Shown here: positions 853 through 47,777 of the stretch, piece after piece
Layout of the letters: the number at the start of each line of letters is the position of its first letter
How positions within the stretch are numbered: position 1 is the first letter of the stretch
Assembly (NCBI GenBank): GCA_964474895.1
Contig: CAYYUK010000001.1
Span: 92,684 to 156,683, forward strand
DNA length: 64,000 nt
Source: Candidatus Woesearchaeota archaeon
GTDB taxonomy: Archaea; Nanobdellota; Nanobdellia; SCGC-AAA011-G17; PNOQ01
Direction: 5' to 3'
Translations under genes and position numbers: made by a program
The notes under the pieces: generated by a model
The model's database searches: none
What the model was told of the DNA's origin: nothing
The model's input: only the letters and a program-made list of their open reading frames with translations

Positions 853-1713
853 TTACTTGAAAGTTGTTAATACTTTCTGTTTTTTGGCACATAATGGAAC
901 TAAGGGTTTTAGTTTATCAATCGGATTTTCATTCCAGTTTATTGAAAACAATTTTAGATTTAGCTTTTTGTACAAAGATATTTTGAGTTCTTTTCTCTTT
1001 AGATAAGGTTCACTATGATAAATTCCCCAGTATTCTATATAAAGATCTAATTCTGGCAAGTAAAAATCACATTTGTACTGCTTATTCTTGAAATCAAATA
1101 TTTTCTCTACTTCATGAGATATTCCATTTTCATATAAAAAATTATCAATTAAAAGTTCAGGACAGCTTCTAACTCTATGGCCATCATTACATGATATTAG
1201 TCCGCTGAATCCGTAAGCTCCTTTTCTGCATTTTATATTCCACATTTTTAGATAATTTAGGATGGTTGTACCTGTAACTCCATACTTTTTAGAAATTAAT
1301 CTAGCAGATTTTCCCTTAAGATATTCATTTATTATCTTTTTCTTATATAAATTCAAGTCAACTTTGCAATTTGGATGGTTTATCCCTTTGCATTTTCCCA
1401 CCCTAGATTTAGACATTTTCCTTTTGGAATTTTTAGAGTGGGTTCTACCGTAGAAATGATTTTTATTTCCTAATGTGGAATTTCTTATTTTTTCTTTTAT
1501 TTCTTCAGAAGTTTTTATTCCCACATTCCATGGAACCCTGCCTGTTAAACTCTTTCTTATGTTATCTTTGTGCTTCTTAGATAATTTTATTCCCTTTCTA
1601 GATTCTTTTGATTTTTCTGCATATTTTTTTACTCTTGGATCTGATTTGGTTAAACCCTTGTTCCAAGCTACTTGTGATCCTTTTCTTCCTTTATTCCACG
1701 GAATTCTTTTCAT
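853..1713 (-). CDS. Free-standing homing-endonuclease-like protein: N-terminal NUMOD3-type repeats, an HTH, and a C-terminal Vsr/DUF559-like PD-(D/E)xK nuclease domain
   Basis: Four to five repeats of WNKG..S.E.K.KIS type (NUMOD3-like). C-terminal CDFYLPELDLYIEYWGIYH matches the Vsr/DUF559 D...E.K/ExW signature. Located 56 bp downstream of polB on the same strand. Confidence 0.55.
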   Translation of the reverse strand: MKRIPWNKGRKGSQVAWNKGLTKSDPRVKKYAEKSKESRKGIKLSKKHKDNIRKSLTGRVPWNVGIKTSEEIKEKIRNSTLGNKNHFYGRTHSKNSKRKMSKSRVGKCKGINHPNCKVDLNLYKKKIINEYLKGKSARLISKKYGVTGTTILNYLKMWNIKCRKGAYGFSGLISCNDGHRVRSCPELLIDNFLYENGISHEVEKIFDFKNKQYKCDFYLPELDLYIEYWGIYHSEPYLKRKELKISLYKKLNLKLFSINWNENPIDKLKPLVPLCAKKQKVLTTFK

Positions 1714-5468: not shown

Positions 5469-7763
5469 TTAACCCATATACTGGTGGGTTTCTCTCATTG
5501 CTGCTCCTCTTGCAACTTTTAAGTATTGTTCTTCAATTTCTTTGTATTTCTTCACATCATTCTCTGTAATTGAAGGTCTTACTTTCTTTACAGCATCTTC
5601 GAAATTACCCATTGTAATTTCTTTTGCCTTTATATCTTTTCTAAGTGCGATCATTCCAGATTCCCTACAAATTGCATCAATATCTGCTCCAGTATACATC
5701 TCAGTTAATTCTGCTAATCTTGTTGTGTTCACGTCAGTTGATAGCTTCATTCCTTGTGTGTGTACATCAAATATTTGTTTTCTGCTTTTTTTATCTGGAA
5801 CTGGAGCCAACAAAATTCTGTCAAATCTTCCTGGTCTCAATAATGCTGAATCTACTTTATCTGGTCTGTTTGTAGTTCCGATTACAACAACATCATTCAA
5901 TTCTTCCAAACCATCTAGTTCTGTTAAGAACTGGCTTACAACTCTTGATGTAACTTCATGAGTATCTCCTGCTGTAGATGTTACTGAATCTATTTCATCA
6001 AATAAAATAATTGTTGGTGAAACTTCTCTTGCTTTGGAGAATATTTTTCTTATTCCTTTTTCAGATTCTCCAACCCATTTAGACATTAACTCAGGTCCCT
6101 TTACAACTATGAAGTTCGCTTCTGATTCTCCTGCGACTGCTTTTGCTAAAAGAGTTTTACCTGTGCCCGGCGGACCGTAGAGTAAGATTCCCTTTGGGGG
6201 TCTAATCCCAATCCTTTTGAATGAATCTGGATTTTTTAGGGGCCATTCTACTGCTTCTTTTAATTCTGATTTAACATTTTCAAGTCCACCAACATCTGCC
6301 CACTTAACATTTGGTTTTTCTACCAGAACTTCTCTCATTGCAGATGGTCTTACTAATTTTAGTGCATCGTGAAAGTCTTTCTCTGTTATTTTTAATTTGT
6401 CTAAATATCCTTGTGGTATTTTTTCTTTTTCTTTTAATTTTAGTTCAGGCAATATTTTTCTCAATGCAGCCATTGCAGCTTCTTTTGCTAATGCTTGTAA
6501 ATCTGCACCTACAAAACCGTGTGTTAATTTTGCCAACTCATTTAGATTAATTCCTTTTGTAAGTGGCATGTTTCTTGTATGGATTTGCAAAATAGTCAAT
6601 CTGCCTTTTTCATTTGGTACTCCGAATACTATTTCTCTATCAAATCTTCCTGGCCTTCTTAGTGCTGGATCAATTGAATTTGCTCTGTTCGTTGCAGCCA
6701 TTATTACAACGTTTCCTCTTTGATTTAGTCCGTCCATCAAAGTTAGTAACTGTGCTACAACCCTCCTTTCAACTTCCCCTTGTGTTTCTTCTCTCTTTGA
6801 AGCAATTGCATCTAGTTCATCTATAAAAATTATAGAAGGTGCTTTTTCAGAAGCATCATCAAATATCTTTCTAAGTTTTTTCTCTGATTCTCCATAAAAT
6901 TTATTCATAATCTCTGGTCCGTTAACTAACATGAAATTTGCTTCTGTTTCATTTGCTACTGCTTTTGCTAAAAGTGTTTTACCTGTGCCCGGCGGACCGT
7001 AGAGTAAGATTCCCTTTGGGGGTTCTATACCTAATTTTTCAAAAAGTTCTGGATGTTTCATTGGCAACTCTACCATTTCCCTAACTTTCTTTACTTCTTC
7101 ATCCAAGCCACCAATATCTTCGTATGTTACATCAGGAGCTATTGCATCTTCTTTGATTTCTACTTTTTTTGAACTTAAATGTATTTCAGTGTTTTCTGTA
7201 ATTATTGATGGTACTCCTGCTGGTTTTGAATCTGCTACGATAAATCTTAAACTTCCTACAGAACCCATGAATCCAGATCCCATGACATCAGAAAATAGTC
7301 CTTCAAATATATCTTCAAATGGACTTCCTGAAAATGTTGATCTTCTTCTGCTTGAACCACCTAAAGATAATATGTCTCCTACAACTACCGCTCTTCCCAA
7401 AAGGCTCCTTTTTAGTGCATTTGGATCTGCTCTAACCATTACTCCTTGTTGTGCTGGTGCTATCGTTATTTTTTTTGCTTCCTTAACTTCTGTTTTTCTA
7501 ACAGTTACTGATTCTCCAATACCTGTTTTGGCATTTCTTCTTAGAATTCCATCCATCCTTATTACAGATTCACCTACATCTGTTGGATAGGCCCTATCTA
7601 CAATCCCTACAGTTTTTCTTCCGCCTTCTATTTCTACTATGTCTCCAGGCCTTACGCCCATGTCTTTCATATCTTGACCATCAATTCTAACTATTCCTTT
7701 GTATGCTTCTTCTTGCATAGCTTCCATTACTTTCAAACCAATTTCTGCATTTTCTTTTGCCAT
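5469..7763 (-). CDS. cdc48: Cdc48/VCP-like AAA+ ATPase (two AAA domains plus Cdc48 N-domain)
   Basis: Two GPPGTGKT Walker A motifs and two DExD Walker B motifs. N-terminal double-psi barrel-like region. C-terminus ends ...HQYMG. Confidence 0.92.
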
Positions 7764-7764
7764 T

Positions 7765-8121
7765 TTATCTCCTTATCTTTCTGAATTCTAAACTTAATCT
7801 TCCCGGTTTGTCTAAACATAATCTCATCATCTTATCCATTTCTTTTTCCATTTGCAGGAATTCTTCTTCGAAAGTTATGATCTCTTTTGGTATTGTAACT
7901 GAAAAACTGTTTCCAACCATTCTTAATTTTACTAGGAAATCTCTTTCTCTCAGTTTTTTAAAGTTTTCGAATTGTTTAATATCTGTAGGGTGAAAATATT
8001 TTTCTTTGCATTTTGGACATTCAGAATATCTTAGTTTAAAACCATCTTTCTCGACGGTGTTTTTATTAGTTTTTGTGTCGCATTTACTGCAAACAATTTG
8101 AGCATCAAATATATCTTTCAT
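7765..8121 (-). CDS. Small zinc-ribbon plus AbrB/MazE-like (swapped-hairpin) DNA-binding protein
   Basis: CSKC...CPKC zinc ribbon at the N-terminus. [16 protein letters not shown] resembles an AbrB/SpoVT domain. Confidence 0.4.
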
Positions 8122-8217
8122 TTTGTGTTAGTTATTTTTGTGTATACGGGGAGTGTATACTTATTTATAAAAGTTATGGTTGGATACTTTTATAAATTAA
8201 AAATCTAAATTTCAATC

Positions 8218-9165
8218 ATGATTGAATATCTCTATTTAGTTATTGGTCTTGTTCTATTAGTTGCTGGTGCTAATTATCTTATTAAGGGTTCTACAAACTT
8301 GGCAAAGAGATTCGGTGTTTCTGAGCTCATTGTTGGTCTTATAGTTCTTGCTTTTGGAACTTCTCTTCCTGAACTGATGGTTAGTGTTCTTTCTGCCCTT
8401 GGCGGAAATACGGATATTGCTTTGGGGAATGTTATTGGAAGCAATATCTCTAATACATTGCTCATTCTTGGATTATGTGCTGTTATCTTTCCTTTGGTTG
8501 TAAAGAAGAGTATAGCTTGGAAAGAAATCCCCCTGGGCATCCTAGCTGTTTCTTCGCTTGTTATCCTTTCTGGAGAAATAGTTTTTGGTTTCACTCCTGT
8601 GTTTGGGAGGTTTGATGGAATTATTTTCCTCTCTCTTTTTTTGGTATTCCTATACTACTCTTACAAATCTCTAAAAGTTCATAAGGTCGTAACTGTTGAT
8701 ATAAAGAAAAATAAAGATTTCTTAACTGCCCTAATGATTCTTGGCGGTTTGGCTGCTGTTTTATTTGGAGGGCATTTAATTGTTGATAATGCAGTACTTA
8801 TTGCCAATAAGGTTGGAATTAGCCAATTTTTGGTTTCTGCTACAATTATAGCAATTGGTAGTTCTCTCCCTGAGTTGGTTGTCTCTCTCGTTGCAATCTT
8901 TAAGAAAAAAGCTAACTTGGCAATTGGTAATATTGTTGGTTCTAATATTTTTAATATCTTTTACATCTTAGGTATTACTGCTTTGATTAAGCCCATCACA
9001 ATTCCTTTGTTTGCTTTCTTCGACATTACTTTCTTATTAATTACAAGTTTGCTTCTATTTGCATCTATATTTATTGGTAGAAAGTATGCTATCGGAAAGT
9101 CAAGCGGAATTATCTTCCTAATTTTGTATTTGATTTATTTAATGATAATAATTGCAAGAGGGTAA
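8218..9165 (+). CDS. Na+/Ca2+ exchanger (CaCA/YrbG) family membrane protein
   Basis: Two alpha-repeat motifs, GTSLPELMVSV and GSSLPELVVSL, each followed by GNVIGSNI and GNIVGSNIFN. Ten predicted TM segments. TATA-like ttttataaatt lies about 27 nt upstream. Confidence 0.75.
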   Translation: MIEYLYLVIGLVLLVAGANYLIKGSTNLAKRFGVSELIVGLIVLAFGTSLPELMVSVLSALGGNTDIALGNVIGSNISNTLLILGLCAVIFPLVVKKSIAWKEIPLGILAVSSLVILSGEIVFGFTPVFGRFDGIIFLSLFLVFLYYSYKSLKVHKVVTVDIKKNKDFLTALMILGGLAAVLFGGHLIVDNAVLIANKVGISQFLVSATIIAIGSSLPELVVSLVAIFKKKANLAIGNIVGSNIFNIFYILGITALIKPITIPLFAFFDITFLLITSLLLFASIFIGRKYAIGKSSGIIFLILYLIYLMIIIARG

Positions 9166-9200
9166 TTCTTAAATTTGGTACCTGATTATTATTAATTAAT

Positions 9201-9788
9201 ATGGATTTTTTTGATGGAGCAAAGAAGGGCATAACTCTTGTATATGGCGAAAGTGCTACTGGTAAGACCACTTTTGGTTTGCAATCTTCATTGGCTATTG
9301 CCAAGAAAGGAAAAGTTTTGTTTCTGGATTGTGATGGAAGTTTCTCTCTTGATAGATTAAAAAAAATGGATCCTGATTGTCGGACATACTTAGATCATTT
9401 CCTTGTTGTTAATTTGAAAGACCTTTTGGAACTTGATTCTAAACTTGAACAATTTGAAAAGATGGTAGATAAATTTGATTTGGTTGTTTTGGACAATATT
9501 GGTTTATATTACAGACTTGGATTAAAAGAAAACTATGTTGTGACAAATAGTCTTATTGTTCGTATATTAAGGAAGCTTAGACATATGTCTGAAGAGATTC
9601 CAATTATAATAATTAGCCAAGTTTATGAAATTGATAAAGGGAAAAAGGTCCTCGGTGGTAAAATGGTTCAAAATTTCTCTGACATTGTATTAGAATTAAA
9701 TAAAGACCCAAGAAAAATTAAAATGTTAAAACCAGAAGAAAAAGAGATTTTATTTAAAATTGAAGATAGTGGTTTAGTTAAGATTTAG
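9201..9788 (+). CDS. radB: RadB-like recombinase paralogue (RecA-superfamily ATPase)
   Basis: Walker A GESATGKTT. VLDNI Walker B. IPIIIISQV. The overall order of motifs matches the short archaeal RadB proteins. Confidence 0.7.
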   Translation: MDFFDGAKKGITLVYGESATGKTTFGLQSSLAIAKKGKVLFLDCDGSFSLDRLKKMDPDCRTYLDHFLVVNLKDLLELDSKLEQFEKMVDKFDLVVLDNIGLYYRLGLKENYVVTNSLIVRILRKLRHMSEEIPIIIISQVYEIDKGKKVLGGKMVQNFSDIVLELNKDPRKIKMLKPEEKEILFKIEDSGLVKI

Positions 9789-11991
9789 TTTTCTTTTTTG
9801 TTGGTCTGTCATTTTCTATATATCTGCATCTGGGATAACCATCACAACTAATGAATAAACCATAAATTGATTTTCTAACTTTTAAATGTCCTTCCTTGCA
9901 GTTTGGGCACTTCTTTTTTAATTTTCCAGAGTCTATTGCTTTCATTTCTTTTAATTTTTCTTTTGATAGATGTCCTATTTTGGTTTTGCATGATGGATCT
10001 ATACACAAAATTTGTGGTTTTTTTCCTTTTTTAATTATTTTCAACTGTGGTTTTCCACATTCTTTGCAAAGTTCATCATGGGCTTTAACTAATGCACTTG
10101 GTAATGAATATATTGTTTTACATTTGGGATAACCGTTGCAAGCAATAAATCTTCCAAACTTACCAAATCTAATCATTAACTTTCCCTTTTCACAATTTGG
10201 ACATTTCCCAATAAGATTTTCATCTTTGGTTGCTTTTGCTAATGCTTTTCCAATTTCCAATTCATTTTTTTTAAATTTATTAATAATCGTTGTTAGAACT
10301 TTTCTTGCTTTTGCAAGTATTTTTTCTTCTGAGTGTTTATTGTCCATAATCTTTTCCATGTCTTCTTCGAATTCTCTGGTTAATTTTTCATCCAAAATTT
10401 CTGGAGCGTATTTTTCCAAATTTTTTATTAGTGCCATCCCTATTGGCGTTGCTTCTAACCTTATTCCATCAATATATCTTCTTTGGGATAGTGCATCTAC
10501 AATTATTGCTCTTGTTGATTTTGTTCCAAGTCTTAAACTTTCCATTTCTTTGATTATTGACGCCTGAGTATATCTTTTTGGTGGTTGTGTTTCTTTTTCT
10601 TCATCATTTATTTTTGGTTTTTTTACTTCGTCACCTTCATTAATATTTTTAATTATTATTTCTTTTGTGTCTACAAATCGCCCATATAGTTCATACCAAC
10701 CTTTTTCTACTATGATTGATCCTGAGAATGAAAATTCTTCTTTGTTAACATCAATTTTAACGTTTGTACTTTCTTTTCTTGCTGGGTCTCCGAATACTGC
10801 AAAAAATCTTCTTACAATTAGTTCATATAATAATTTTGACCTTCCACTAACTTTTCCCCTTTCCCCTGTGGGATAAACTGCGGGATGTGCTGGATCATCT
10901 TTTTTACCTTCATTTGGTTTTAATTTTGATTTTGATAACAACAATTCGCAAGATTTTGAGAAATCTTTATTTTTTGATAATTGTTTTAGAATCTTTTTAT
11001 AATTTATTGCTATTGGTAATTTTTGAGAACTAGTTCTTGGATATGAAATTAAACCTGCAGTGTAAAGATCTTGTGCTAGTTTTGAAGTTTCCTTAGGAGT
11101 TATTCTCAAGGCTCTAAATGCTTCTATTTGTAATGTTGTTAGATCAAACGGTGTTGGTGGATTTACAGTTGTTATTCTTTTAGTAATTTTTGAAACAATT
11201 GCTTTTTTGCCTTTTGTATTTTTTAGTATCTTAGTAACTTCTTCTTTTTTCTGAAACTTATCTTTCTTGTGTTTTGCTAATATTTTCTTTTTGTTTAGTT
11301 CGCCTTCTAAAAAGATTTCCCAGTATTTTTTAGGCTTAAATTTTTTTATGCTTTCTTCTCTTTTAACAATTAATTTTAATGTTGGACCTTGAACTCTTCC
11401 CGTTGACATTAACCTAAATCTTTTTGCTCCTTTTTTTATTGCTTGCGTTAATGCATTACTTAGGTTAATTCCGTAGTACCAGTCAAGTTTGTGTCTTGTT
11501 TTTCCAGCTTCAATCCTTGGAAAGTCCAAATGCTTGTTCGCTTTTTCATATGAGTCTATTAGTTCGTCTTTTGTTAATGTAGAGAACTTCATTCTTTTTG
11601 CATCTTTTTGTCCGCAAATGAATTTGATTACATTGAACCCTATAACAGATCCTTCTACATCGTAATCTGTTGCTACTGTGAATTTATCTGCTCTTTTTGA
11701 TAATTGTTTTAGAATATTTGCATAATTCCTGGTGTATTCTGCATGTTTATCAATCTCATATTTTGGTTTCCACTCTATGTCAAAATTTGGAAGTTTATTA
11801 GTTCCTTTTTTGGACTTTGCTAATCCAAATAAATGTCCAACTGCACAACCAACAAGAATTGATTTTCCTTTATGTTTTAACTCATAATACTTTACTTTGC
11901 CTACTGTTTTTTTTATTGGTTTTGTGTCTGCTAAGGCGGTTGCTATTTTCTCTGCTTGTGCTGGTTTCTCTGTAACAATTAGCTCTACCAT
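9778..11991 (-). CDS. topA: DNA topoisomerase I (type IA) with C-terminal C4 zinc ribbons
   Basis: Toprim N-terminus (LIVTEKP..., DYDVEG). Catalytic-Tyr region SYPRTSS. Three CxxC...CxxC zinc-ribbon modules at the C-terminus. Confidence 0.88.
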   Translation of the reverse strand: MVELIVTEKPAQAEKIATALADTKPIKKTVGKVKYYELKHKGKSILVGCAVGHLFGLAKSKKGTNKLPNFDIEWKPKYEIDKHAEYTRNYANILKQLSKRADKFTVATDYDVEGSVIGFNVIKFICGQKDAKRMKFSTLTKDELIDSYEKANKHLDFPRIEAGKTRHKLDWYYGINLSNALTQAIKKGAKRFRLMSTGRVQGPTLKLIVKREESIKKFKPKKYWEIFLEGELNKKKILAKHKKDKFQKKEEVTKILKNTKGKKAIVSKITKRITTVNPPTPFDLTTLQIEAFRALRITPKETSKLAQDLYTAGLISYPRTSSQKLPIAINYKKILKQLSKNKDFSKSCELLLSKSKLKPNEGKKDDPAHPAVYPTGERGKVSGRSKLLYELIVRRFFAVFGDPARKESTNVKIDVNKEEFSFSGSIIVEKGWYELYGRFVDTKEIIIKNINEGDEVKKPKINDEEKETQPPKRYTQASIIKEMESLRLGTKSTRAIIVDALSQRRYIDGIRLEATPIGMALIKNLEKYAPEILDEKLTREFEEDMEKIMDNKHSEEKILAKARKVLTTIINKFKKNELEIGKALAKATKDENLIGKCPNCEKGKLMIRFGKFGRFIACNGYPKCKTIYSLPSALVKAHDELCKECGKPQLKIIKKGKKPQILCIDPSCKTKIGHLSKEKLKEMKAIDSGKLKKKCPNCKEGHLKVRKSIYGLFISCDGYPRCRYIENDRPTKKKTKS

Positions 11992-12047
11992 GAAGATTTA
12001 GGGCTAAACTAACTTTTTTAAGTGTTTTGTATAAAAGAAAAAGAATA

Positions 12048-12290
12048 TTATTGTCTTATTTCGAAAGCATCTGCACACTTTCTTGAACAGAATCTGTATT
12101 TTTTTCCCTTTATTTCTTCCTCTATGAATTCTGTTCCTTCTAAAACTTTGTGACAGTTTGCGCATTTGCTTTCATCAATATCATCATTATATCCTTGCAT
12201 GAAACCTTCTTCTTCTGTTTCTATTTCATCATTATCTTCAAGTTCTTCTGCTTTATTATACACATTAACTTCTTTGTTTTCTTGGCTCAT
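12048..12290 (-). CDS. TRASH-domain zinc-ribbon protein
   Basis: CANC-x22-CSRKC matches the TRASH pattern C-x2-C-x19-22-C-x3-C. Acidic N-terminus. The start overlaps the serS 3' end by 26 nt. Confidence 0.5.
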   Translation of the reverse strand: MSQENKEVNVYNKAEELEDNDEIETEEEGFMQGYNDDIDESKCANCHKVLEGTEFIEEEIKGKKYRFCSRKCADAFEIRQ

Positions 12291-13569
12291 TTCTTTTTCT
12301 CCCCATTTTTTTTATTCTGAACATATATTTCCTTAAAGCTCTTGGAACTGTTATTGTATTATCTTTGTTTTGAAAGTTCTCTATGATTGCAACCATCGTT
12401 CTTGAAGTTGCAACCATTGTATTGTTTAACATGTGAACATATTTTTTCTCTTCCCCATCAATGTATCTTATGTTTAAAGGAACTGATTGATATGTTGTTG
12501 TATTGCTTGCCGATGTTACCTCACCATATTTATTCTGTCTTGGGAACCATGCTTCAATATCATATTGCTTTGCTTGTTTATATCCAAGATCCCCTGAGCA
12601 CATCTCTATAACTCTGAAAGGTATTTTTAATTTTTTATAAAAATCTTCTGTAATCTTTTGCATTTCTTCCATGTATTTCCATGAACTTTCTTGGTCTGAA
12701 ATTATTACCTGCTCTACCTTGTAGAATTGGTGCATCCTAAATAGTCCTTTTGTATCTACTCCGTGACTTCCAATTTCCTTTCTAAAACAAGGTGTAATTG
12801 TTGCCAACTTTATTGGTAGTTCTTCTTTTCTAAAAGTCTTGTTCTTAAATAATGAAACTAAGGGGTGTTCTCCTGTCGCAATTAAGTATAAATCTTCATC
12901 ACCTATTTTGTAAATAACTTCTTTGAAGTCTTCAAGGTCTACTGTTCCCCCCATTGTTTTTTTGTTAAGCATTAAAGGTGGGCAGATTATTCTAAATCCC
13001 TTACTAACTAGAGTTTCTATGCCAAATCTTTGTAACGCAAGATCTAACAATGCTAAATCATTTGTCAAATAATTAAAACCCTGACCAGCATTTGTTCTCC
13101 CTGCATTAAAGTTTGCAAGTTTTGCATCTTCTAAGAATTCTCCATGTGATTTTATCTCAAATTGGTGTTGTGTTTTCTCTCCAAAAAATTTGAAAGGAAC
13201 ATTATCTTTTTCAGTTTCTCCTTTTGGAACTGATTCATGTAATGTATTTGGTATTTTTAGTAAATTTGAATTTATTTCTTCTTTAAGAGAGTTCATTTCA
13301 TTTTCTATTTTTTCTAAGCTTCTTGGTATCTCCTTGGCTAAGTTTAATATTCCTTTTATGTCTCTTCCCTCTTTTTTCTCTAATCTTATTTTATCTGTTA
13401 ACTCATTTCTTTTGTTTCTCAACTTATCTGATTTTTGTTTTAGGAATCTCCATTTTTTATCTTGTTCTATAATTATATTTAGCACTTCTTTTTTGTCTAA
13501 AAGGCCTCTTTTTTCTAGAGAATTATTAACGATAGTTTTATTTTCTCTAAGATATTTTATACTTAACAT
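12265..13569 (-). CDS. serS: Seryl-tRNA synthetase
   Basis: N-terminal coiled-coil tRNA-binding arm, class II core motifs, 434 aa. Confidence 0.92.
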   Translation of the reverse strand: MLSIKYLRENKTIVNNSLEKRGLLDKKEVLNIIIEQDKKWRFLKQKSDKLRNKRNELTDKIRLEKKEGRDIKGILNLAKEIPRSLEKIENEMNSLKEEINSNLLKIPNTLHESVPKGETEKDNVPFKFFGEKTQHQFEIKSHGEFLEDAKLANFNAGRTNAGQGFNYLTNDLALLDLALQRFGIETLVSKGFRIICPPLMLNKKTMGGTVDLEDFKEVIYKIGDEDLYLIATGEHPLVSLFKNKTFRKEELPIKLATITPCFRKEIGSHGVDTKGLFRMHQFYKVEQVIISDQESSWKYMEEMQKITEDFYKKLKIPFRVIEMCSGDLGYKQAKQYDIEAWFPRQNKYGEVTSASNTTTYQSVPLNIRYIDGEEKKYVHMLNNTMVATSRTMVAIIENFQNKDNTITVPRALRKYMFRIKKMGRKRNEPRKQRS

Positions 13570-13704
13570 AGAGTTATCAGGACTTCAGTATTTATTTAAA
13601 TGTTTTGCTGAGTCTTCTTTAAAAGGACTTATAAACTATTAAAAGTTCAGCTATATCCTGTAAAATATAAACCTTTAAATATAGTTAGAAGTTGATAGGT
13701 TTGG

Positions 13705-13983
13705 GTGTTAATGATGAGTGATACAGATATATTTGAAGTATTTTTTAGACGTAAGCCGTCGATGATTTTGGTAGCTTTGAGAAATAATCCAAGAGCAAGA
13801 TATGGTTCTCTTTTGGCTAAGGAAGTGGATTGTACTTATTCTCATGCAGTTAAAATCTTGCAAGAGATGGAAAAAAACAAGTTAGTTACCTTTGAAAAGA
13901 AGGGAAGAATTAAGACAATTAACTTAACTGAGAACGGTGAAAGGGTTGCAGATCATATTGAAAAGATCAAAGACATTCTTTAG
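13705..13983 (+). CDS. Small winged-helix DNA-binding protein
   Basis: SLLAKEVDCTYSHAVKILQEMEKNKLVTFEKKGR is a wHTH. TATA-like tttaaatata lies about 27 nt upstream. Confidence 0.45.
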   Translation: MLMMSDTDIFEVFFRRKPSMILVALRNNPRARYGSLLAKEVDCTYSHAVKILQEMEKNKLVTFEKKGRIKTINLTENGERVADHIEKIKDIL

Positions 13984-13985
13984 TT

Positions 13986-14303
13986 ATGGCTTTTAGCAAA
14001 AGTTTTCCAAGAACTGTAGGAACTAGTTCTTATCCAATTTGGGAAGAGATTTTCTTAACTGAAGATGAAGAAAGAGAGATTGAAGAAATTTCTAAGAAAG
14101 AAAATGTGGAATTAATGCAATCTTGTTTTGATGATGCAAAAAAGATAATTATTGAGAAGAGTAATAATGAATCTTCTGGTGATATTGTAAGTGTTGCTAT
14201 TTCTTTGTTTAATAAATTGGCTTCTCATTCAGTTTACCATAAAGAAAATAAGACCAAAGAAAAATTTGATGAAAAGTTTGGAAATGGGCCCGAGGGGATT
14301 TGA
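13986..14303 (+). CDS. Hypothetical acidic protein. The 3' end overlaps tRNA-Lys by 19 nt.
   Basis: ORF only, starting 3 nt after the stop of the wHTH gene. No recognisable domain. Confidence 0.3.
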   Translation: MAFSKSFPRTVGTSSYPIWEEIFLTEDEEREIEEISKKENVELMQSCFDDAKKIIIEKSNNESSGDIVSVAISLFNKLASHSVYHKENKTKEKFDEKFGNGPEGI

Positions 14304-14359
14304 ACCCCCGACCTTCTGGTTAAGAGCCAGACGCTCTAACCAAGCTGAGCTACGAACCC
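14285..14359 (-). tRNA. tRNA-Lys (anticodon CUU)
   Basis: Hand-folded cloverleaf: acceptor GGGTTCG/CGGGCCC, D-arm GCTC-AGCTTGGTTA-GAGC, anticodon arm TCTGG-CTCTTAA-CCAGA (U33, CUU, A37), T-arm GGGGG-TTCAAAT-CCCCT, discriminator A. No encoded CCA. Confidence 0.8.
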
Positions 14360-14399
14360 GTAATTAGTTGCGAAGAAATTCTGTATAAAAAGGTTTTGT

Positions 14400-15164
14400 T
14401 TAGGCACTTTGGAATCTAATCCAGAAGAATAGTATTAATCCCAAAAACAAGAAATACAGTATGTTGTATATCCAGAGCAATTGCGTCTTAATTGGTAACA
14501 AAAAGTGTAGTATGATAAATATCAATGCTATAATTGCACTTGTTAATATTGTTAGCAGCACGTTATCTCTTACGTTTTCTAGTGCATATTCTTTGAGATC
14601 TGAACAATCTTCGTTTAAACATGTCTTTTTTAATACATTTCCAGAGGAATCTGTTATTGAATAATTATTCATCCCTTGTATATAAAAGAATACAACAAAG
14701 GTTCCAGAGAGGATAAGAGTTATAAAAATAAATGATATCAGATATGTAATTATCTTCATTGGTGTTATTTTTTTTCGTTCTGGTTTTTCTTCTTTACTAA
14801 TTTCTTCTTTTTTCTTTTCTATTATTGGTTTTTCTAACTTTTTTGGTTTTGGTCTTTCTATTCCCCTGAACGATTCTTCAATCTTTTGTGGTTTCCACCC
14901 CTTACTTAGAAGTACGTTTCGTATTTCTGTTTCAGATATTCCTTCCTCAATTGATTTTCTTATAAATTGTTTAAGAATTGTTTCTTCTGGTTTTTTCTTT
15001 GGTTTTTTTATTATCTTTTTGTTTTCTTTGCTTACAATCTTAAGGGCAGGCAGTACTTCTTGTTTTTTCCAACCGTTTTTTTCTAGTAAATCCAGTAGTT
15101 CATCTTCAGAATATCCTTTTTTTATACCCTCTTTTATGTAACTTATTAATTTGATATCAACCAT
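14400..15164 (-). CDS. Membrane protein with two N-terminal ~35-aa repeats and a lysine-rich linker
   Basis: Repeats IKEGIKKGYSEDELLDLLEKNGWKKQEV and IRKSIEEGISETEIRNVLLSKGWKPQKIEESF. KPKKK linker. Three C-terminal TM helices. Confidence 0.45.
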   Translation of the reverse strand: MVDIKLISYIKEGIKKGYSEDELLDLLEKNGWKKQEVLPALKIVSKENKKIIKKPKKKPEETILKQFIRKSIEEGISETEIRNVLLSKGWKPQKIEESFRGIERPKPKKLEKPIIEKKKEEISKEEKPERKKITPMKIITYLISFIFITLILSGTFVVFFYIQGMNNYSITDSSGNVLKKTCLNEDCSDLKEYALENVRDNVLLTILTSAIIALIFIILHFLLPIKTQLLWIYNILYFLFLGLILFFWIRFQSA

Positions 15165-15244
15165 TAAAACAGTTTTTGGATTTTAAGTTTAAATAGTTTA
15201 CTAAAAGAAAGATATATAAAGAATTAATTATAAATTAATTAATT

Positions 15245-16006
15245 ATGGAGATAAATCTGAAAAAAACCCCTCAAAATGTTACTATTATCGAGGGCTTTCC
15301 CGGCTTTGGTTTGGTTGGTACTATATCTACAGAATATTTGCTAGATCACTTGGATGCTGAGAAAATTGGCTCTATTTGGTTTGATGGTATGAATCCCATC
15401 GTTGCAGTTCATGAAAAGAAAGTTGTTGAACCAATTGGAATATTTTATCATAAAAAGAAAAATTTGGTTATAATCCATGCACTTACAAACGTTTCTGGTG
15501 TTGAGTGGAAGTTAGCTAAAATTATGGATGACCTTGCTAAAAAATTGAAAGCTAAAGAATTTATAAGTTTAGAAGGTGTTGGTGCTCTTGGTAAGGGCGG
15601 TGCTTTAAATATGAATAAAAAATTTAGTCCAAAAGAGAGGGGTAATTTGGAAGCTGGCGGTCCCAAAACTTATTATTACAGTTCTAAAAAGAATTTAGCT
15701 TGGGAGAAAGCAGGGATACCTCCTTTAAATGAGGGTATGGTCATTGGTGTTACGGCCAGCATGCTGCTAAAATTAAAATCCTCTCCGATTTCTTGCATAT
15801 TTGTTGAAGCCCAGTCTGGATTGCCCGATAGTAGGGCGGCTGCAGAAATTATAAAAGTTTTAGATCTTTATCTTGGATTAAAAGTTGATTTTAAACCATT
15901 ACTTAAGAAAGCAGAGAATTTCGAAGGCAAAATTAAAGGTTTAATGAAAAATACTCAGAAAGTTATTAAAACCAAGGATAACAAAGAATTAAGTTATATG
16001 GGATAA
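15245..16006 (+). CDS. PAC2-family protein (PbaA/PbaB-like proteasome assembly chaperone)
   Basis: N-terminal IIEGFPGFGLVGTISTEYLLDHL signature of the archaeal PAC2 family. Ends ...SYMG. TATA-like gatatataaag at about -27. Confidence 0.6.
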   Translation: MEINLKKTPQNVTIIEGFPGFGLVGTISTEYLLDHLDAEKIGSIWFDGMNPIVAVHEKKVVEPIGIFYHKKKNLVIIHALTNVSGVEWKLAKIMDDLAKKLKAKEFISLEGVGALGKGGALNMNKKFSPKERGNLEAGGPKTYYYSSKKNLAWEKAGIPPLNEGMVIGVTASMLLKLKSSPISCIFVEAQSGLPDSRAAAEIIKVLDLYLGLKVDFKPLLKKAENFEGKIKGLMKNTQKVIKTKDNKELSYMG

Positions 16007-20796: not shown

Positions 20797-21213
20797 TTAA
20801 TTTTTTGATTCTTCTGGTTTCATATATGGAAGTCTTATCTGCGGTGGTAAATTTACTTCTTGAGATAAATTTAGTCCTTTTATATTACACTTACCTAAAA
20901 TCGTATTGAATATTAGTGGTGCTATCTCTTTTGGGAGATTTTTTTCTTTTTTCCACGATTCTTGTATTTCTTTGATTTTCTTTGGATCTTCCATATAGAG
21001 CACGTGACCATTTAAAACAATCTTTCCAATTTGAGGTTCATAATCCACTAAATACTCAAAATCAAATTTTAGAACCTCTTCTGACTTTCCAAGTGACAAT
21101 TTATCTTGTTCTACATTTTTTATTGATAAATTATTCTTTATTTTCAAGTTTGCATTTACTTGATTAGTTTTTTCTGCATTTATTTTTTCAAGATTGAATC
21201 CAACAATAGGCAT
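20797..21213 (-). CDS. Hypothetical protein
   Basis: ORF only, 138 aa, no recognisable motif. Confidence 0.35.
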   Translation of the reverse strand: MPIVGFNLEKINAEKTNQVNANLKIKNNLSIKNVEQDKLSLGKSEEVLKFDFEYLVDYEPQIGKIVLNGHVLYMEDPKKIKEIQESWKKEKNLPKEIAPLIFNTILGKCNIKGLNLSQEVNLPPQIRLPYMKPEESKN

Positions 21214-25296: not shown

Positions 25297-26912
25297 CCAA
25301 TAAAATATCTTTTTTCTTGAAAAGGGGATATTTGCTTAATCCAGATATATTAAAAGTTATAGACGAAAGTCTTTTTGAAAGACTTGGAGGACAATTTGAA
25401 TCAGGAGATAAACCTGTTGTGTTGACCAAGGATATAAAAAAGATTTTAGAGAAGAAGGGATTTAAATTTAATGCAAATTGGAACGATTTCGAAAAGGCAA
25501 GGGTTGATTATGAAAAAGGGGAAGATAGTGAAGTTTATCTTACTTTTTTAGAAGTTTCAGATCATAACTTACCAAACGTGGTTGGGGAAGACAATATCCA
25601 AGAAAGAGAAGAAAATGTAGTTACAGAAGAAACTTCTGAAAATGGAGCATCAATGCCTATTGTTTTGAAAAATTATTGCGACAAGGGGGCAAAAGTAGAT
25701 GTTTCCTCTTTTGTTGCTTATTATAAAATTCGTTACAATTATCTGAGAAAAGTATTACAAACGAGAAATGGATTATCAGGGGTGCTCTCTATAAACAGGT
25801 TAGGAAACAAAAGGAAAGGCGAGAAAATATCTACAATGGGTATTGTGTATTCTAAAGAAACTACAAAAAATGGTCATGTTGTTTTGGAATTAGAAGATGT
25901 AACTGGAATGGTGAAGGTTTTAATTATGAAAACAAAAGATGATTTGTATAATGATGGAATTGACGTTGTTTGTGATGAAGTAATTGGTATAACTGGTGTT
26001 GTTGGAGATAAAATTATTTTTGCAGATAAAATATTTTTCCCAGAATTCCCAAAGAGTAATAATATTAAGAAGGGGGGGGTTGAAGAATATGCCGCATTTA
26101 TATCTGATGTTCATGTCGGGTCTGATGTTTTTTTGGAAGACAATTTTTTGAAATTCATAAATTGGATGAATGGCAATTATGGAAATAAAGAACAGAGGGA
26201 AAAAGGATCTAAAGTGAAATATCTATTTGTTGTTGGCGATCTTGTAGATGGTGTTGGGGTGTATCCTGGGCAAGAATCAAATTTGAAAATAAATGACATA
26301 ACAGCACAGTATAACCGATTAGCAGAATTATTTTCAATGATAAGAAAAGACATACAGATTATTGCTTGCCCAGGAGACCACGATGCATTAAGATTAGCAG
26401 AACCACAGCCTTATTTGGATAAATCAATTGCGGAATCTGTGTGGAATTTGGGCAATGTTACCCTTGTTACAAATCCTTCCTTGGTTAATGTTGGAGCCAC
26501 AAAAAACTTTGGGGGGTTTAATGTTTTGTTGTATCATGGACGTAGTTTTAGTTATTTTATAGATGTTTTGGATTCCGTTAGAGAGGCTGGGGGGTATGAT
26601 GGAATAGATTATCTTTTGAAATTATTACTAAAAAAGAGACACTTGGCACCAAGCCATGAATCAACGTTGACAGTTATCGATAAGGAAGAAGATGCAATGT
26701 TAATAGAAGAGGTTCCTGATTTTTTTGCAGTTGGGCATATCCATAGGTGTAAAGTCGAACAACATGGCGTGACAACTTTAATCTCTGGTAGTTGTTGGCA
26801 ACCCCTTACAGACTATCAAGAAAAGTTAGGGCATAATCCCGAACCTGCAAGAGTTCCAATAGTGAATTTGGAATCAAGGGAAGTTAGTGTTATGAAATTT
26901 ATAGATGATTAA
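25281..26912 (+). CDS. polD1: DNA polymerase II (PolD) small subunit DP1
   Basis: Calcineurin-like phosphoesterase motifs (DVHVG, GDLVDGVG, GDHD, VGHIH). Overlaps orc1 by 16 nt. Confidence 0.9.
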   Translation: MVGNLTNKISFFLKRGYLLNPDILKVIDESLFERLGGQFESGDKPVVLTKDIKKILEKKGFKFNANWNDFEKARVDYEKGEDSEVYLTFLEVSDHNLPNVVGEDNIQEREENVVTEETSENGASMPIVLKNYCDKGAKVDVSSFVAYYKIRYNYLRKVLQTRNGLSGVLSINRLGNKRKGEKISTMGIVYSKETTKNGHVVLELEDVTGMVKVLIMKTKDDLYNDGIDVVCDEVIGITGVVGDKIIFADKIFFPEFPKSNNIKKGGVEEYAAFISDVHVGSDVFLEDNFLKFINWMNGNYGNKEQREKGSKVKYLFVVGDLVDGVGVYPGQESNLKINDITAQYNRLAELFSMIRKDIQIIACPGDHDALRLAEPQPYLDKSIAESVWNLGNVTLVTNPSLVNVGATKNFGGFNVLLYHGRSFSYFIDVLDSVREAGGYDGIDYLLKLLLKKRHLAPSHESTLTVIDKEEDAMLIEEVPDFFAVGHIHRCKVEQHGVTTLISGSCWQPLTDYQEKLGHNPEPARVPIVNLESREVSVMKFIDD

Positions 26913-29900
26913 AATGGTTTTTAGTTTAGAGAAATATAATGAAGGATTAAATGAGAATGTAGATAAAGCATATTCTCTTGCAAAACTTGCCAAAGCAAAG
27001 GCATATGATCCCTTGGATATTGTTGAGATTCCTCTTGCCAAGAATATGGCAGAGAGAGTAGAGAGGTTGACCGGTGTGGCTGCTCCTCAAATAGTTGGAA
27101 AGGGAATACCGGATAGGATAGGGGAATTAGAAAAAAAATATGGAAAATTGGATTGGAGGGTTGCATTATCAATCGCCCATGAAGTAACACAAGAGAAATT
27201 CTGTAAATTTGAAAATAAAAAAGAGGCAATTGAAATTGGAATTAGGGTTGGGTTTGCATATGTTACTGTCGGTGTCGTTGCAAGTCCTCTTGAAGGATTT
27301 ACAGGAATAGATATTAGAAAAAGAAGGGACGGAAAGGAATATATTGCATTGTTATATTCAGGTCCTGTAAGAAGCGCAGGGGGAACTGCAGCATCTGTTT
27401 CTGTTTTAATTGCAGATTATATTCGGAAAAAGATGGGATATAGTGTATACGATGCTGATGAAAACGAAGCGAAGCGAGCAATAACTGAGCTAACAGATTA
27501 TCATGAGAGAATTACAAATTTGCAGTACTTTCCTTATCCTGAAGAGATAGAGTATCTGATTTTAAATCTTCCAGTACAAATAGACGGAGATCCAACCGAA
27601 AAGTTAGAAGTTTCAAATTATAAAGGGTTGGACAGGATTGCTACAAATAAGCTAAGGGGTGGGTTTTGTTTAGTTATAGGGGAATGTTTGGCTCAAAAAG
27701 CGAAAAAAGTTTTAAAGCAATTAGACTCATGGGGTGGCGATTTTGATTTGGGAGACTGGAATTTTATGGGTAAATTTTGCAAACTACAAACTAGGCTGAA
27801 GGCAAAACAGAAAGAGGATATAGTTGCAGAAAAAAAAGAAAAGGTTTCTCCAGATTATACTTTTATAAAAGATATAGTTGCAGGTAGACCCGTTTTAACA
27901 CACCCCTTATGCAAGGGAGGGTTTAGATTAAGATACGGTAGAACAAGAACAACAGGATTAAGTGCAACAGCAATACACCCTTTGACTATGAAAATTTTAA
28001 TGGATTATATTGCTATTGGAACACAATTGAAAGTTGAACGACCTGGCAAGAGTACTGTTCTTAGTTCGTGTGATTATTTGGAAGGACCCATAGTTAAACT
28101 GGTAAATGGAGATGTCGTTTTTTTAACTGAAGAAAATTATGATTTGGTGATTTCTAAAATATCTGAAATACTTTTTTTAGGGGACATTTTGATTCCATAT
28201 GGGGATTTTTTGAATAGGGCACATACACTAGTCCCCCCTGGATATTGTGAGGAATGGTGGTTAAAACATTTGCAAGCAAAAGGAAAATTTCCAGAGGATA
28301 TTTCAGAGATTACGGGTTTAGACATATTTCAAATTAAGAAACTTTTTGCAGATCCAATAAAAACAGTAATTTCTGCAGGGGATGCATACATTCTTTCTAA
28401 GATGGCAAAAGTACCTTTACACCCAAGATATACATACCATTGGAAAGATATTGATGTCAAAGAACTTCTTGTTTTATTAGGGTGGCTTGTTAAATCTACC
28501 ATAAAAAAGGGGGATCAATTTAAAATTATTTTTCCAATTGATTACGGGTCTGATGTTGTCGAACCAAAAATTATATTGGAAAAACTTGGAATCCCTCATA
28601 GAGTTGTTTCAAAAGAGTACATTGTTGTAGAAAATGAGTGGGCGATAGGACTTATGGCAAATCTTGGAATATATAGCAAAGATATCGACATTAAAGAATT
28701 AATAAAGAAAATAAATTCCAGTAAAGATGCTTTAGCTAACATAAACCTTTTTTCAGAAGTGGAAATAAAAGATAAATCTGGTTTGTCAATTGGTGCAAGA
28801 ATGGGCAGGCCAGAAAAAGCAAAGATGAGAAAACTAAAAGGCAGTCCACACGTTCTCTTTCCAGTTGGTTCCGAAGGTGGCAGACTTAGAAGTTTTAATG
28901 CTGCAATGGATAATGGAAAGATAAGATCGGAGTTCCCGATTTTTTTGTGTGAATCTTGCAATAGCGAAACAGTATATCCTTTTTGTGAGAAATGTGGTGC
29001 TAAAACAAGTAGACAATATTATTGTCCCAAATGCAAAAGAACAATGGGTACCAAAGACTGCCCACAACACGAGAAAAATAATCATTATTCCTATAGGGAC
29101 ATAGACGTAAACCATTATTGTAAAATTGCCAAAGAAAAGTTAGGCTTAACTGGGTTTCCTGATTTGGTTAAGGGAGTGAGGGGGGTTTCCAACGAAGAGA
29201 GAGCTATGGAGAATCTAACTAAAGGAATCCTTAGATCAATACATGGAGTAACAGTTAACAAAGATGGAACTGTTCGTTATGACATGACTGAAATGCCACT
29301 AACACATTTCAAACCTGTAGAAATTGGCACATCGGTAGACAAATTAATAAAATTAGGATATACTGAAGATATACATGGAGAAACTCTTGTAGATATTAAT
29401 CAAATTATACAGTTAATGCCCCAAGATGTTATTTTGCCTTCCTGTGAAGAGTCTTCAGAAGAAGGAGGGGATGCAATATTATTCAGGGTTGCTGGTTTTG
29501 TTGATGATCTTCTTCAATATTTTTATGGTTTGGAAAGATTTTATAATTTTAAATCTAAGGAAGACTTGGTTGGTCATCTAATAATAAGTCTTGCTCCACA
29601 TACGTCAGCAGGCGTAGTTGGAAGAGTGATTGGTTTTTCTAAAACACAGGGTTGTTATGCTAGCCCAATATGGCATTCTGCTCAAAGAAGAGATTGTGAT
29701 GGGGATGAAAATGGCATAATGCTGCTAATGGATGGGCTGTTGAATTTTTCTAGAAAATATTTATCAAGTCATAGGGGTGCGACACAAGATGCCCCCCTTG
29801 TATTAACCACGAATCTTATTTTAACAGAAGTTGATGATATGGTATTTGATGTTGATTGTTCATCCGAATATCCTCTCGAATTTTATAATGCATGTGAAGA

Positions 29901-30438
29901 GTATAAGATGCCTTGGGGAGTAAAGATTGAATCCATTGGGGATCATTTGGAAGAAGATGATTTTAAAATAGGATATACTCATGAAGTTAGTAATCTGAAT
30001 TCCGGTGTTAGATATAGTGCATACAAGAAGATACCGACAATGGCAGAGAAAGTAATTGGTCAAATGAAATTGGCAGAGATGATAAGGGCTGTTGACGAAA
30101 ATGATGTTGCGCGTTTAGTTATTGAAAGACATTTCATTAGAGACATTAAAGGAAATCTTAGGAAATTTAGCATGCAGCAGTTTAGGTGTGTAAATTGTAA
30201 TGAAAAATATAGAAGGCCCCCCTTGATTGGAAAGTGTCGCAAGTGTGGTGGAAAATTATTGTTTACTATATCTGAAGGTTCGGTAACAAAATATTTAACA
30301 CCTTCTTTGAATTTGGCTGAGAAGTATAAAGTTCCCACTTATACTTATCAGACTCTTGATTTAACCAGGAGAAGGATAGAAAGTGTTTTTGGAAAAGAAG
30401 CGGATAGACAAGAAGGATTGGGTCGTTGGTTTGGTTAA
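26905..30438 (+). CDS. polD2: DNA polymerase II (PolD) large subunit DP2
   Basis: 1177 aa. Cys clusters (CESCNSE...CEKCG, CVNCN...CRKCGG). Catalytic region CDGDENGIMLLMDG. Overlaps DP1 by 8 nt. Confidence 0.9.
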   Translation: MIKMVFSLEKYNEGLNENVDKAYSLAKLAKAKAYDPLDIVEIPLAKNMAERVERLTGVAAPQIVGKGIPDRIGELEKKYGKLDWRVALSIAHEVTQEKFCKFENKKEAIEIGIRVGFAYVTVGVVASPLEGFTGIDIRKRRDGKEYIALLYSGPVRSAGGTAASVSVLIADYIRKKMGYSVYDADENEAKRAITELTDYHERITNLQYFPYPEEIEYLILNLPVQIDGDPTEKLEVSNYKGLDRIATNKLRGGFCLVIGECLAQKAKKVLKQLDSWGGDFDLGDWNFMGKFCKLQTRLKAKQKEDIVAEKKEKVSPDYTFIKDIVAGRPVLTHPLCKGGFRLRYGRTRTTGLSATAIHPLTMKILMDYIAIGTQLKVERPGKSTVLSSCDYLEGPIVKLVNGDVVFLTEENYDLVISKISEILFLGDILIPYGDFLNRAHTLVPPGYCEEWWLKHLQAKGKFPEDISEITGLDIFQIKKLFADPIKTVISAGDAYILSKMAKVPLHPRYTYHWKDIDVKELLVLLGWLVKSTIKKGDQFKIIFPIDYGSDVVEPKIILEKLGIPHRVVSKEYIVVENEWAIGLMANLGIYSKDIDIKELIKKINSSKDALANINLFSEVEIKDKSGLSIGARMGRPEKAKMRKLKGSPHVLFPVGSEGGRLRSFNAAMDNGKIRSEFPIFLCESCNSETVYPFCEKCGAKTSRQYYCPKCKRTMGTKDCPQHEKNNHYSYRDIDVNHYCKIAKEKLGLTGFPDLVKGVRGVSNEERAMENLTKGILRSIHGVTVNKDGTVRYDMTEMPLTHFKPVEIGTSVDKLIKLGYTEDIHGETLVDINQIIQLMPQDVILPSCEESSEEGGDAILFRVAGFVDDLLQYFYGLERFYNFKSKEDLVGHLIISLAPHTSAGVVGRVIGFSKTQGCYASPIWHSAQRRDCDGDENGIMLLMDGLLNFSRKYLSSHRGATQDAPLVLTTNLILTEVDDMVFDVDCSSEYPLEFYNACEEYKMPWGVKIESIGDHLEEDDFKIGYTHEVSNLNSGVRYSAYKKIPTMAEKVIGQMKLAEMIRAVDENDVARLVIERHFIRDIKGNLRKFSMQQFRCVNCNEKYRRPPLIGKCRKCGGKLLFTISEGSVTKYLTPSLNLAEKYKVPTYTYQTLDLTRRRIESVFGKEADRQEGLGRWFG

Positions 30439-45612: not shown

Positions 45613-45648
45613 AAATTATTATAAGTTGTAGAATTGAGGGAATTGAAT

Positions 45649-47335: not shown

Positions 47336-47390
47336 TAATCAAAAGATTTAAATAATAAGAATTAAGATTATCAAATAGAGGTGAAGATAT

Positions 47391-47774: not shown

Positions 47775-47777
47775 AAA

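Follow-up and report, generated by a model that had tools for sequence, protein, structure and literature searches.

The HbYX tail, a C-terminal hydrophobic residue followed by tyrosine and any last residue, is treated as a near-universal key for docking regulators onto the 20S proteasome, and both the pattern of Forouzan et al. 2012 (C-terminal [LVIMGAPFYW][FY]x; PMC3493965) and ProEnd predict partners of the 20S by it. The motif is carried by PAN, Rpt2/3/5, PA200/Blm10, archaeal Cdc48, AMA, PbaA/PbaB and Pba1/PAC1, and PbaB, PbaA, Cdc48 and PAN use such tails together with Lys66 of the alpha subunit (PMC3493965, PMC3605417). Here the tails of three proteins of this kind were analysed, a Cdc48-type ATPase, a PbaA-like protein of the PAC2 family and a PAN-type nucleotidase, all encoded in one stretch of 64,000 nt from a Candidatus Woesearchaeota archaeon (assembly GCA_964474895.1, contig CAYYUK010000001.1, positions 92,684 to 156,683 of the forward strand; guanine plus cytosine content 32%), in the following referred to as the window. 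Residues are numbered from the C-terminus, P1 being the last one, and Φ denotes a hydrophobic residue.

In the 20S of Thermoplasma acidophilum the carboxylate at the end of the tail forms a pair with K66, the Tyr at P2 is placed between L81 and K33 and bonds the backbone of G19, and the hydrophobic group lies against V24, L21 and A154, while an engineered L81Y mutation partly opens the gate, mimicking the HbYX Tyr (PMC10349882). For the human 20S, Opoku-Nsiah et al. 2022 described a Y-Phi motif in which Tyr is exclusively required at P3 and makes a bond there to alpha Glu25, a conserved residue; at P2 either Phe or Tyr is favoured, at P4 Ser works best, and the side chain at P5 matters little. 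The optimum is NLSYYT/NLSYFT, and Rpt5 and PA200 are natural examples (PMC8907193). Among the assembly chaperones, PbaB has flexible C-terminal "tentacles" with the sequence Gly-Tyr-Leu that bind and activate the 20S in a Lys-dependent manner (PMC3605417).

When reading the ends of the three window genes, the tails listed in the first-pass annotation (HQYMG in Cdc48, LSYMG in the PAC2 protein and GGMFG in PAN) were all recovered, each directly before a clean TAA. The final codons of cdc48 are GAA ACC CAC CAG TAT ATG GGT TAA, giving ETHQYMG, and the PAC2 and PAN proteins end in KELSYMG and STGGMFG respectively. The first two proteins thus carry Tyr at P3 and Met at P2, and PAN carries Met at P3 and Phe at P2.

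To see how far these ends are conserved, the 120 closest homologues of each of Cdc48 and the PAC2 protein (240 in total) were compared, reaching down to ~63% identity for Cdc48 and ~48% for PAC2. Tyr is found at P3 in 120/120 Cdc48 and 119/120 PAC2 sequences (239/240) and Gly at P1 in 118/120 and 119/120 (237/240), so that the YMG-type end is strongly conserved, with Y-Φ-G in 119 of the 120 PAC2 homologues. The Cdc48 tails are YMG (68), YLG (29), YFG (19), YMS (2), YYG (1, in a sequence labelled Nanopusillus) and YVG (1), and the PAC2 tails YMG (53), YLG (41), YVG (22), YFG (3) and one other; P2 is accordingly M 70, L 29, F 19, Y 1 and V 1 in Cdc48 and M 53, L 41, V 22 and F 3 in PAC2. Ser or Asn occupies P4 in 103/120 PAC2 (S 73, N 30) and 90/120 Cdc48 sequences (S 56, N 34), the window proteins having Ser in PAC2 and Gln in Cdc48, and P5 of the PAC2 homologues is L, V, I or M in 117/120. 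A four-position motif, [S/N]-Y-[M/L/V/F]-G, is in this way common to two unrelated folds, and the canonical hydrophobic-Tyr-X order was found in 0/240 of these homologues. The same ends recur on many independent contigs, among 120 + 120 + 80 homologues of Cdc48, PAC2 and PAN from varied samples and assemblers. The names attached to the homologues place the source lineage in Woesearchaeota/Nanoarchaeota, within DPANN.

Such ends are rare in general. Amino-acid composition alone would give Y-[MLVIF]-G at 0.00064 per protein, and among 1,365 genes at the level of open reading frames (ORFs) in 81 Woesearchaeal DNA stretches, Y-Φ-G was found in 3 against 0.87 expected, two of the three being the window Cdc48 and the window PAC2 protein. 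The tails are not accidental, because P3 Tyr and P1 Gly are so nearly invariant and Y-Φ-G is so seldom seen in ORFs, and this conservation indicates strong purifying selection on both. A lineage-wide habit of ending proteins in an aromatic residue or Met followed by Gly was considered and ruled out by the same count, together with that of Φ-[FY]-G, which outside PAN occurs in 3 ORFs. The third Y-Φ-G ORF, L019:14433-14867 (+), encodes 144 aa ending in FKNYIG, and the N-terminus of its product resembles that of a 138-aa window ORF, 20797..21213 (-), which ends ...RLPYMKPEESKN.

PAN behaves differently from the other two. Its orthologues were collected from 80 loci, the window and 79 others in named Woesearchaeota/Nanoarchaeia genomes, and all 80 end in [MI][FY]G: in the 79 where the alignment reaches the C-terminus the tail is MFG (72), IFG (3), MYG (2) or IYG (2), and the eightieth (L079) ends in MYG. 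Tyr at P3 was found in 0/80 of these sequences, and F or Y at P2 in 80/80. M-F-G with its Met at P3 and Phe at P2 satisfies the Forouzan pattern, and a natural Phe at P2 is also known from PAN-A of Methanosarcina mazei, in which the F439Y mutant is a stronger activator (PMC3493965). Since PAN falls within the published HbYX pattern, the three proteins do not have a single new motif; the earlier suggestion of one tail common to Cdc48, PAC2 and PAN was therefore given up, only the invariant terminal Gly being common to them, and the PAN tail is of ordinary HbYX order.

The origin of the P3-Tyr tail could be followed in the PAC2 family, using a broad survey of representatives clustered at 50% identity (725 matches with E <= 0.001, of which the best 150 were examined). 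The 155 full-length homologues with >=35% identity to the window protein comprise 152 with Y-Φ-G, 2 with Y-Φ-x and 1 with another tail, while among the 65 with <35% identity there are 40 canonical Hb-[YF]-x tails (including MYG, IYG, MYQ, MYR and VYL), 20 Y-Φ-G, 3 Y-Φ-x and 2 others. A neighbour-joining tree was built from the alignment minus its last eight residues and the tail state was then mapped onto it, which took 6 Fitch steps compared to a mean of 34.9 (minimum 29) over 300 label shuffles. Nearly all P3-Tyr proteins form one large contiguous clade, delimited by sequence as the representatives carry no taxonomy, with named members from Woesearchaeota, Nanoarchaeota/Nanoarchaeia and Nanopusillus, and the canonical neighbours nearest to it end in LMYG, TMYG, IIYG, SIYG, KIYG and LMYG. 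The tree thus indicates that the P3-Tyr tail arose essentially once in the PAC2 family, from Φ-Y-G relatives. Because these nearest neighbours end in Φ-Y-G, the simplest history would be a swap of P3 and P2, from Φ-Y-G to Y-Φ-G, with the ancestral terminal Gly kept, and the YFG and YYG tails, which fit both definitions, are plausible intermediates. For Cdc48 the sample is the 120 closest sequences, all with P3 Tyr; the presence of HbYX in canonical Cdc48 proteins of archaea is taken from the literature (PMC3493965), and the alignments to Cdc48/VAT structures in the PDB end before the flexible tails. The idea of a lineage-specific variant docking motif, put forward for all three proteins in the first-pass annotation, consequently holds as the best reading of the Cdc48 and PAC2 tails, which are conserved and clade-specific with distant PAC2 homologues ending in Φ-Y-x, and was abandoned for PAN.

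The family assignments behind this comparison are summarised in Table 1. The window Cdc48 contains CDC48_N (89.9 bits), CDC48_2 (30.1 bits) and two AAA + lid modules according to Pfam, scores 1031 bits against NCBIfam TIGR01243 (cutoff 803) and shows the features of the CDC48/VAT family, with T. acidophilum VAT as its nearest solved relative. In PAN, Prot_ATP_ID_OB_C (29.2 bits) is followed by one AAA + lid, the N-terminal coiled coil is short, and the scores against the NCBIfam PAN subfamily models (493 and 483 bits) lie slightly under the 500-bit cutoffs; the mechanical ORF runs from a GTG at 31953 and the orthologue alignment begins at the ATG at 32037. The PAC2 protein matches PF09754 with 103.8 bits (cutoff 25.8, E 1.5e-29), falls below the cutoffs of the NCBIfam hypothetical-equivalog models (88.8 vs 199 bits) and is a divergent member of the PAC2/PbaA-PbaB family.

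Table 1. Proteasome-associated genes of the window and their C-terminal tails (coordinates in the window).
Feature	Position	Strand	Basis
Cdc48/VAT-type double-ring AAA+ ATPase, 764 aa	5469..7763	-	Pfam, NCBIfam
Cdc48 C-terminal tail Y-M-G (P3-P2-P1)	5472..5480	-	read directly; stop TAA 5469..5471
PAC2-family PbaA-like proteasome chaperone/activator homologue, 253 aa	15245..16006	+	Pfam, phmmer, Foldseek
PAC2 C-terminal tail Y-M-G	15995..16003	+	read directly; stop TAA 16004..16006
PAN-type proteasome-activating nucleotidase, 372 aa	32037..33155	+	Pfam, orthologue alignment
PAN C-terminal tail M-F-G	33144..33152	+	read directly; stop TAA 33153..33155

An AlphaFold model of the PAC2 protein built with 48 homologues (mean predicted local distance difference test, pLDDT, 85.3; predicted template modelling score 0.81) has an alpha/beta/alpha core and a long C-terminal helix at residues 217-251, after which the tail residues Y-M-G (251-253) have pLDDT <50. 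When searched with Foldseek, the top match was PbaA of Pyrococcus furiosus (5y9n_A, E 6e-19, template modelling (TM) scores 0.76/0.81), with further matches to PbaB, Ta1441 and human and yeast PAC1/PAC2-type chaperones in assembly intermediates, and phmmer likewise gave P. furiosus PbaA (3wz2, 2.3e-18) and PbaB (5e-6). The window protein and its closest relative have an insertion of ~19 aa at residues ~113-140 (253 aa compared to ~234 in most homologues), predicted to be disordered with pLDDT <50 for residues 118-134. In the model, the unstructured YMG following a long helix resembles the HbYX-bearing tentacle of PbaB.

Taken together, the comparisons make it probable, with some reservation, that these tails are 20S-docking motifs and that in Woesearchaeota/Nanoarchaeota a permutation has turned the HbYX of both Cdc48 and the PbaA-like PAC2 protein into [Ser/Asn]-Tyr-hydrophobic-Gly, PAN having kept the ancestral order. 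The ancestral hydrophobic-Tyr-Gly would have become [Ser/Asn]-Tyr-hydrophobic-Gly with the Tyr moving from P2 to P3. We infer that the receptor is most likely still the alpha pocket of the 20S, where the flexible C-terminus would insert between adjacent alpha subunits of the ring and the carboxylate of the terminal Gly would pair with the conserved Lys66. The P3 Tyr would then fill a hydrophobic sub-pocket, its hydroxyl possibly bonding alpha Glu25 in the way described for the human Y-Phi motif, and the aliphatic P2 residue would occupy the site that usually holds the Tyr ring.

Several points weigh against this proposal. The bond between the P2 Tyr hydroxyl and G19 matters for gate opening in T. 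acidophilum (PMC10349882), and Met, Leu or Val at P2 cannot form it. The human motif requires an aromatic residue at P2 for its pi-stacking, and ~80% of the activity is lost with cyclohexylalanine at this position (PMC8907193); the P2 of the Woesearchaeal tails is mostly Met, Leu or Val, so that no such stack can be formed. P. furiosus PbaA, despite its HbYX tail, showed no detectable binding to mature 20S (PMC3605417), and a tail alone is no proof of docking. Finally, no 20S gene was found by tblastn in the window and its 10-kb extensions (84 kb), in 83 related loci (1.34 Mb) or in six further Woesearchaeal loci, using as queries T. acidophilum alpha (identical to PDB 1pma_A) and beta (an unverified sequence); the statement of the first reading that the window lacks 20S subunit genes was confirmed by this search, which covered the window plus 10 kb on each side. 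The further suggestion that the relationship to the 20S core is altered found no support, and neither did an absence of the core, as a preprint from 2026 covering 208 complete genomes of Nanobdellota (including 123 Woesearchaeales) lists a proteasome subunit as part of the universal core of single-copy genes. The lineage very probably has a 20S, since the subunit belongs to this core.

The main rival to the docking interpretation is a division of labour, in which the swapped tail docks without a gate-opening Tyr, so that Cdc48 and the PbaA-like protein would bind without gating, or would gate otherwise (through the Cdc48 pore-2 loops), leaving the M-F-G of PAN as the sole true gate opener. The strict separation of the two registers, with P3 Tyr absent from PAN and the canonical order absent from the Cdc48 and PAC2 sets within one lineage, points to a functional importance of the order, and in the T. 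acidophilum 20S it is the P2 Tyr whose hydroxyl bonds G19 and bridges to K66 for opening, a role that an aliphatic P2 could not fill. However, peptides with P3 Tyr open the human 20S via Glu25, so loss of the P2 Tyr need not end gating, and YFG, which makes up 16% of the Cdc48 tails, fits the gating pattern. We regard a division of labour as possible but doubtful.

The remaining alternatives are less likely than either docking or a division of labour. The pattern could reflect phylogenetic inertia, with tolerated drift in ring activators that are multivalent and need no strict motif; Opoku-Nsiah et al. reported that valency overrides the motif and that PAN tails look arbitrary save at P2, and noted that archaeal Cdc48 does not adhere to it (PMC8907193), and P2 does vary among M, L, V, F and I. 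Drift is nevertheless improbable, as it cannot give the near-invariant P3 Tyr and P1 Gly and the common Ser/Asn at P4 in two folds that have diverged to 35-65% identity, nor does it account for two families converging on one motif with PAN fixed on another. Slightly less probable still is a different receptor, a lineage-specific adaptor (such as the Zn-ribbon/AbrB-like protein encoded upstream of Cdc48, described below) or another peptidase that would read [S/N]-Y-Φ-G. In its favour, the C-terminal LYG of eukaryotic p97 is read by PUB/PUL-domain cofactors, the PAN of these cells has another tail, Cdc48, PAC2 and PAN are all without a 20S gene nearby, and distant genomes also have the small gene that abuts Cdc48. 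Against this, the nearest PAC2 relatives have an ordinary Φ-Y-G at the same position, the sole known property common to Cdc48 and PAC2/Pba proteins is C-terminal docking to the alpha ring, and no candidate receptor domain was identified. An annotation artefact through wrong stops, frameshifts or assembly errors is practically excluded by the TAA stops in all three genes and by identical protein ends across many contigs and the 120 + 120 + 80 homologues.

Returning to docking at the alpha ring, alpha subunits were collected and compared at the residues of the pocket. An AT-biased alpha-motif scan of metagenome contigs gave at least 120 loci, the placeable ones being mostly of Nitrosopumilales type by sequence resemblance, with Thermoplasmata/Thermoplasmatota, Methanobacterium and Aenigmarchaeota labels, some eukaryote-like sequences and several unplaced types in addition; a degenerate alpha-motif scan of viral contigs gave no match. 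A profile search started from the unplaced DPANN-like alphas returned matches with Aenigmarchaeota names only and no Woesearchaeal alpha, and none of the alpha-bearing contigs of the scan carried a PAC2, Cdc48 or PAN gene. On contigs of 727-741 kb the alpha gene contexts consist of the exosome superoperon only. Locus L094 is the best candidate for a relative with a Woesearchaeal alpha: its FEN1 is ~50% identical to Woesearchaeal FEN1s (their own range being 45-52%) and it has an adjacency of FEN1 and an aminoacyl-tRNA synthetase gene in common with this genome. It is not claimed as such, its alpha being 62% identical to an Aenigmarchaeota-labelled cluster. The synteny between L089 and L067 comprises only the ribosomal-protein operon.

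In 188 archaeal alphas, including 120 of DPANN type, the residues K66, E25, G19, P17, Y26, Y8, D9 and G80 are invariant, although the alphas derived from loci were chosen by a pattern fixing residues 15-27, so that in these the independent observations are limited to K66, G80 and the gate residues. The residue at position 81 (in the numbering of T. acidophilum) is variable: it is Leu in sequences of Thermoplasmata, Methanobacterium and Methanococcales type, Tyr in Nitrosopumilales-type and Aenigmarchaeota-labelled alphas and also in L094 and L108, and Phe in 98/120 DPANN-type alphas. Alphas with an aromatic residue here may be seen as natural counterparts of the engineered L81Y mutant, and a co-variation of alpha-81 with the tail register is only an idea at this stage. 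As a tentative extension of the docking proposal, no more probable than the division of labour, one alpha ring might read two tail codes, Φ-F-G on PAN and [S/N]-Y-Φ-G on both Cdc48 and the PbaA-like protein, the P3 Tyr being recognised via alpha Glu25 and maybe coupled to an aromatic alpha-81 that supplies the P2 Tyr ring in cis. If true, P3-Tyr recognition would not be specific to eukaryotes and an archaeal 20S could tell classes of partners by their tail register.

Some of the collected alphas differ at the gate. In alphas of one lineage, those of L086, L123 and L170 (group B) and of L099, L112 and L156 (group C), the N-terminus YD[FE][DA]STIFSP replaces the near-universal YDRAITVFSP, and Arg10, a gate residue within the YDR motif, is lost. 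The neighbouring genes of group C are labelled Thermoplasmata/Thermoplasmatota, and group B is placed only by its sequence resemblance to group C.

When analysing the surroundings of cdc48, a gene for a 118-aa protein, 7765..8121 (-), was found that ends 1 nt before the cdc48 start codon. In its product an AbrB/SpoVT-like segment comes after a Zn ribbon (CxxC...CPxC), with no Pfam match and only a weak match to the NCBIfam model "doc_partner", and homologues with 46% and 59% identity lie directly upstream of Cdc48 in two distant Woesearchaeal genomes (L210:9622-9978 and L211:9640-9999), one of these being the complete chromosome CP066683.1; it may be a Cdc48 adaptor. The gene order SerRS (seryl-tRNA synthetase) - TopA - RadA-like ATPase - small ORF - Cdc48 - MetAP (methionine aminopeptidase, M24) - PolB - FEN1 is conserved in the window, L210 and L211, and Cdc48 is ~66-68% identical across the genomes with this conserved neighbourhood. 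The distance from Cdc48 in the window is 7.5 kb for PAC2 and 24 kb for PAN. PolB and FEN1 are adjacent or nearly so in L210 and L211; here they are separated by a NUMOD3-like ORF, two ORFs without annotation and a short fragment of RVT_1, a reverse transcriptase domain (853..1713 (-) and the 10-kb extension on the left side of the window, L212:12372-15591), which looks like a mobile-element insertion.

Elsewhere in the window, the large subunit DP2 of PolD, 26905..30438 (+), ends in QEGLGRWFG, a PIP-box-like QxxLxxWF plus Gly. Its WFG formally fits the HbYX pattern yet is no proteasome motif, an indication that searches by tail alone give false positives. At ~41184..50576 (+) two large ORFs (769 and 712 aa) precede a series of small ones whose products begin with hydrophobic helices, and by its sequence appearance alone this region suggests a type IV pilus-like or archaellum-like locus.

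Among the papers searched, no earlier report of the Y-Φ-G variant and none combining HbYX with Nanoarchaeum was found, and ProEnd contains no mention of DPANN, Nanoarchaeota or PAC2. The Forouzan pattern fails in 217/240 of the Cdc48 and PAC2 homologues, and two of the three partners in this lineage would be missed by searches of this kind. The swapped tail is a refinement of a known docking mechanism and not a new system, and it offers a natural experiment on the separate roles of the Tyr and the hydrophobic residue, the same cells keeping PAN on the ordinary order.

Compared with the classical HbYX motif, the Cdc48 and PAC2 tails belong to the same protein families, stand at the extreme C-terminus with a free carboxylate and have one aromatic and one aliphatic residue before the last one, and the Tyr at P3 is itself allowed by the pattern. 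They differ in that the Tyr or Phe at P2 is missing, in the window proteins as well as in ~84% of the Cdc48 and ~97% of the PAC2 homologues (F or Y at P2 in 20/120 and 3/120 respectively). The archaeal HbYX model also leaves P1 and P4 free (PMC8907193), whereas here P1 is a near-invariant Gly and P4 mostly Ser or Asn.

With PbaA and PbaB of P. furiosus (3wz2/5y9n, 3vr0) the window PAC2 protein has the fold (TM 0.72-0.81) and a C-terminal helix ending in a flexible tail with a docking motif in common. It is set apart by only 26% identity, an NCBIfam score below the cutoff and the disordered insertion, and PbaB has its Gly-Tyr-Leu in the canonical register where the window protein has Y-M-G.

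The variant is similar to the preference for Tyr at P3 that has recently been reported for the human 20S. The Tyr required there at P3 is present in 239/240 homologues, the small or polar P4, with Ser as the optimum, is matched by the Ser/Asn of 103/120 PAC2 and 90/120 Cdc48 proteins, and L-S-Y-M-G of the window PAC2 protein agrees with the optimised human peptide at P3 and P4 and in the Leu at P5. The aromatic P2 is lacking, however, both window proteins having Met and only 23/240 homologues Phe or Tyr, P1 is Gly instead of Thr or Ala, and the archaeal alpha ring is presumably homo-heptameric. There is no evidence of common descent between the Woesearchaeal tail and the human Y-Phi motif.

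A lineage-wide variant common to unrelated activators of one 20S also has a bacterial parallel, as the actinobacterial Mpa/ARC and Bpa/PafE proteins end in GQYL, a fixed and extended form of HbYX. In the GQYL tails, which belong to another lineage and have other flanking residues, the Tyr stays at P2, unlike in the tails of Cdc48 and the PAC2 protein described here.

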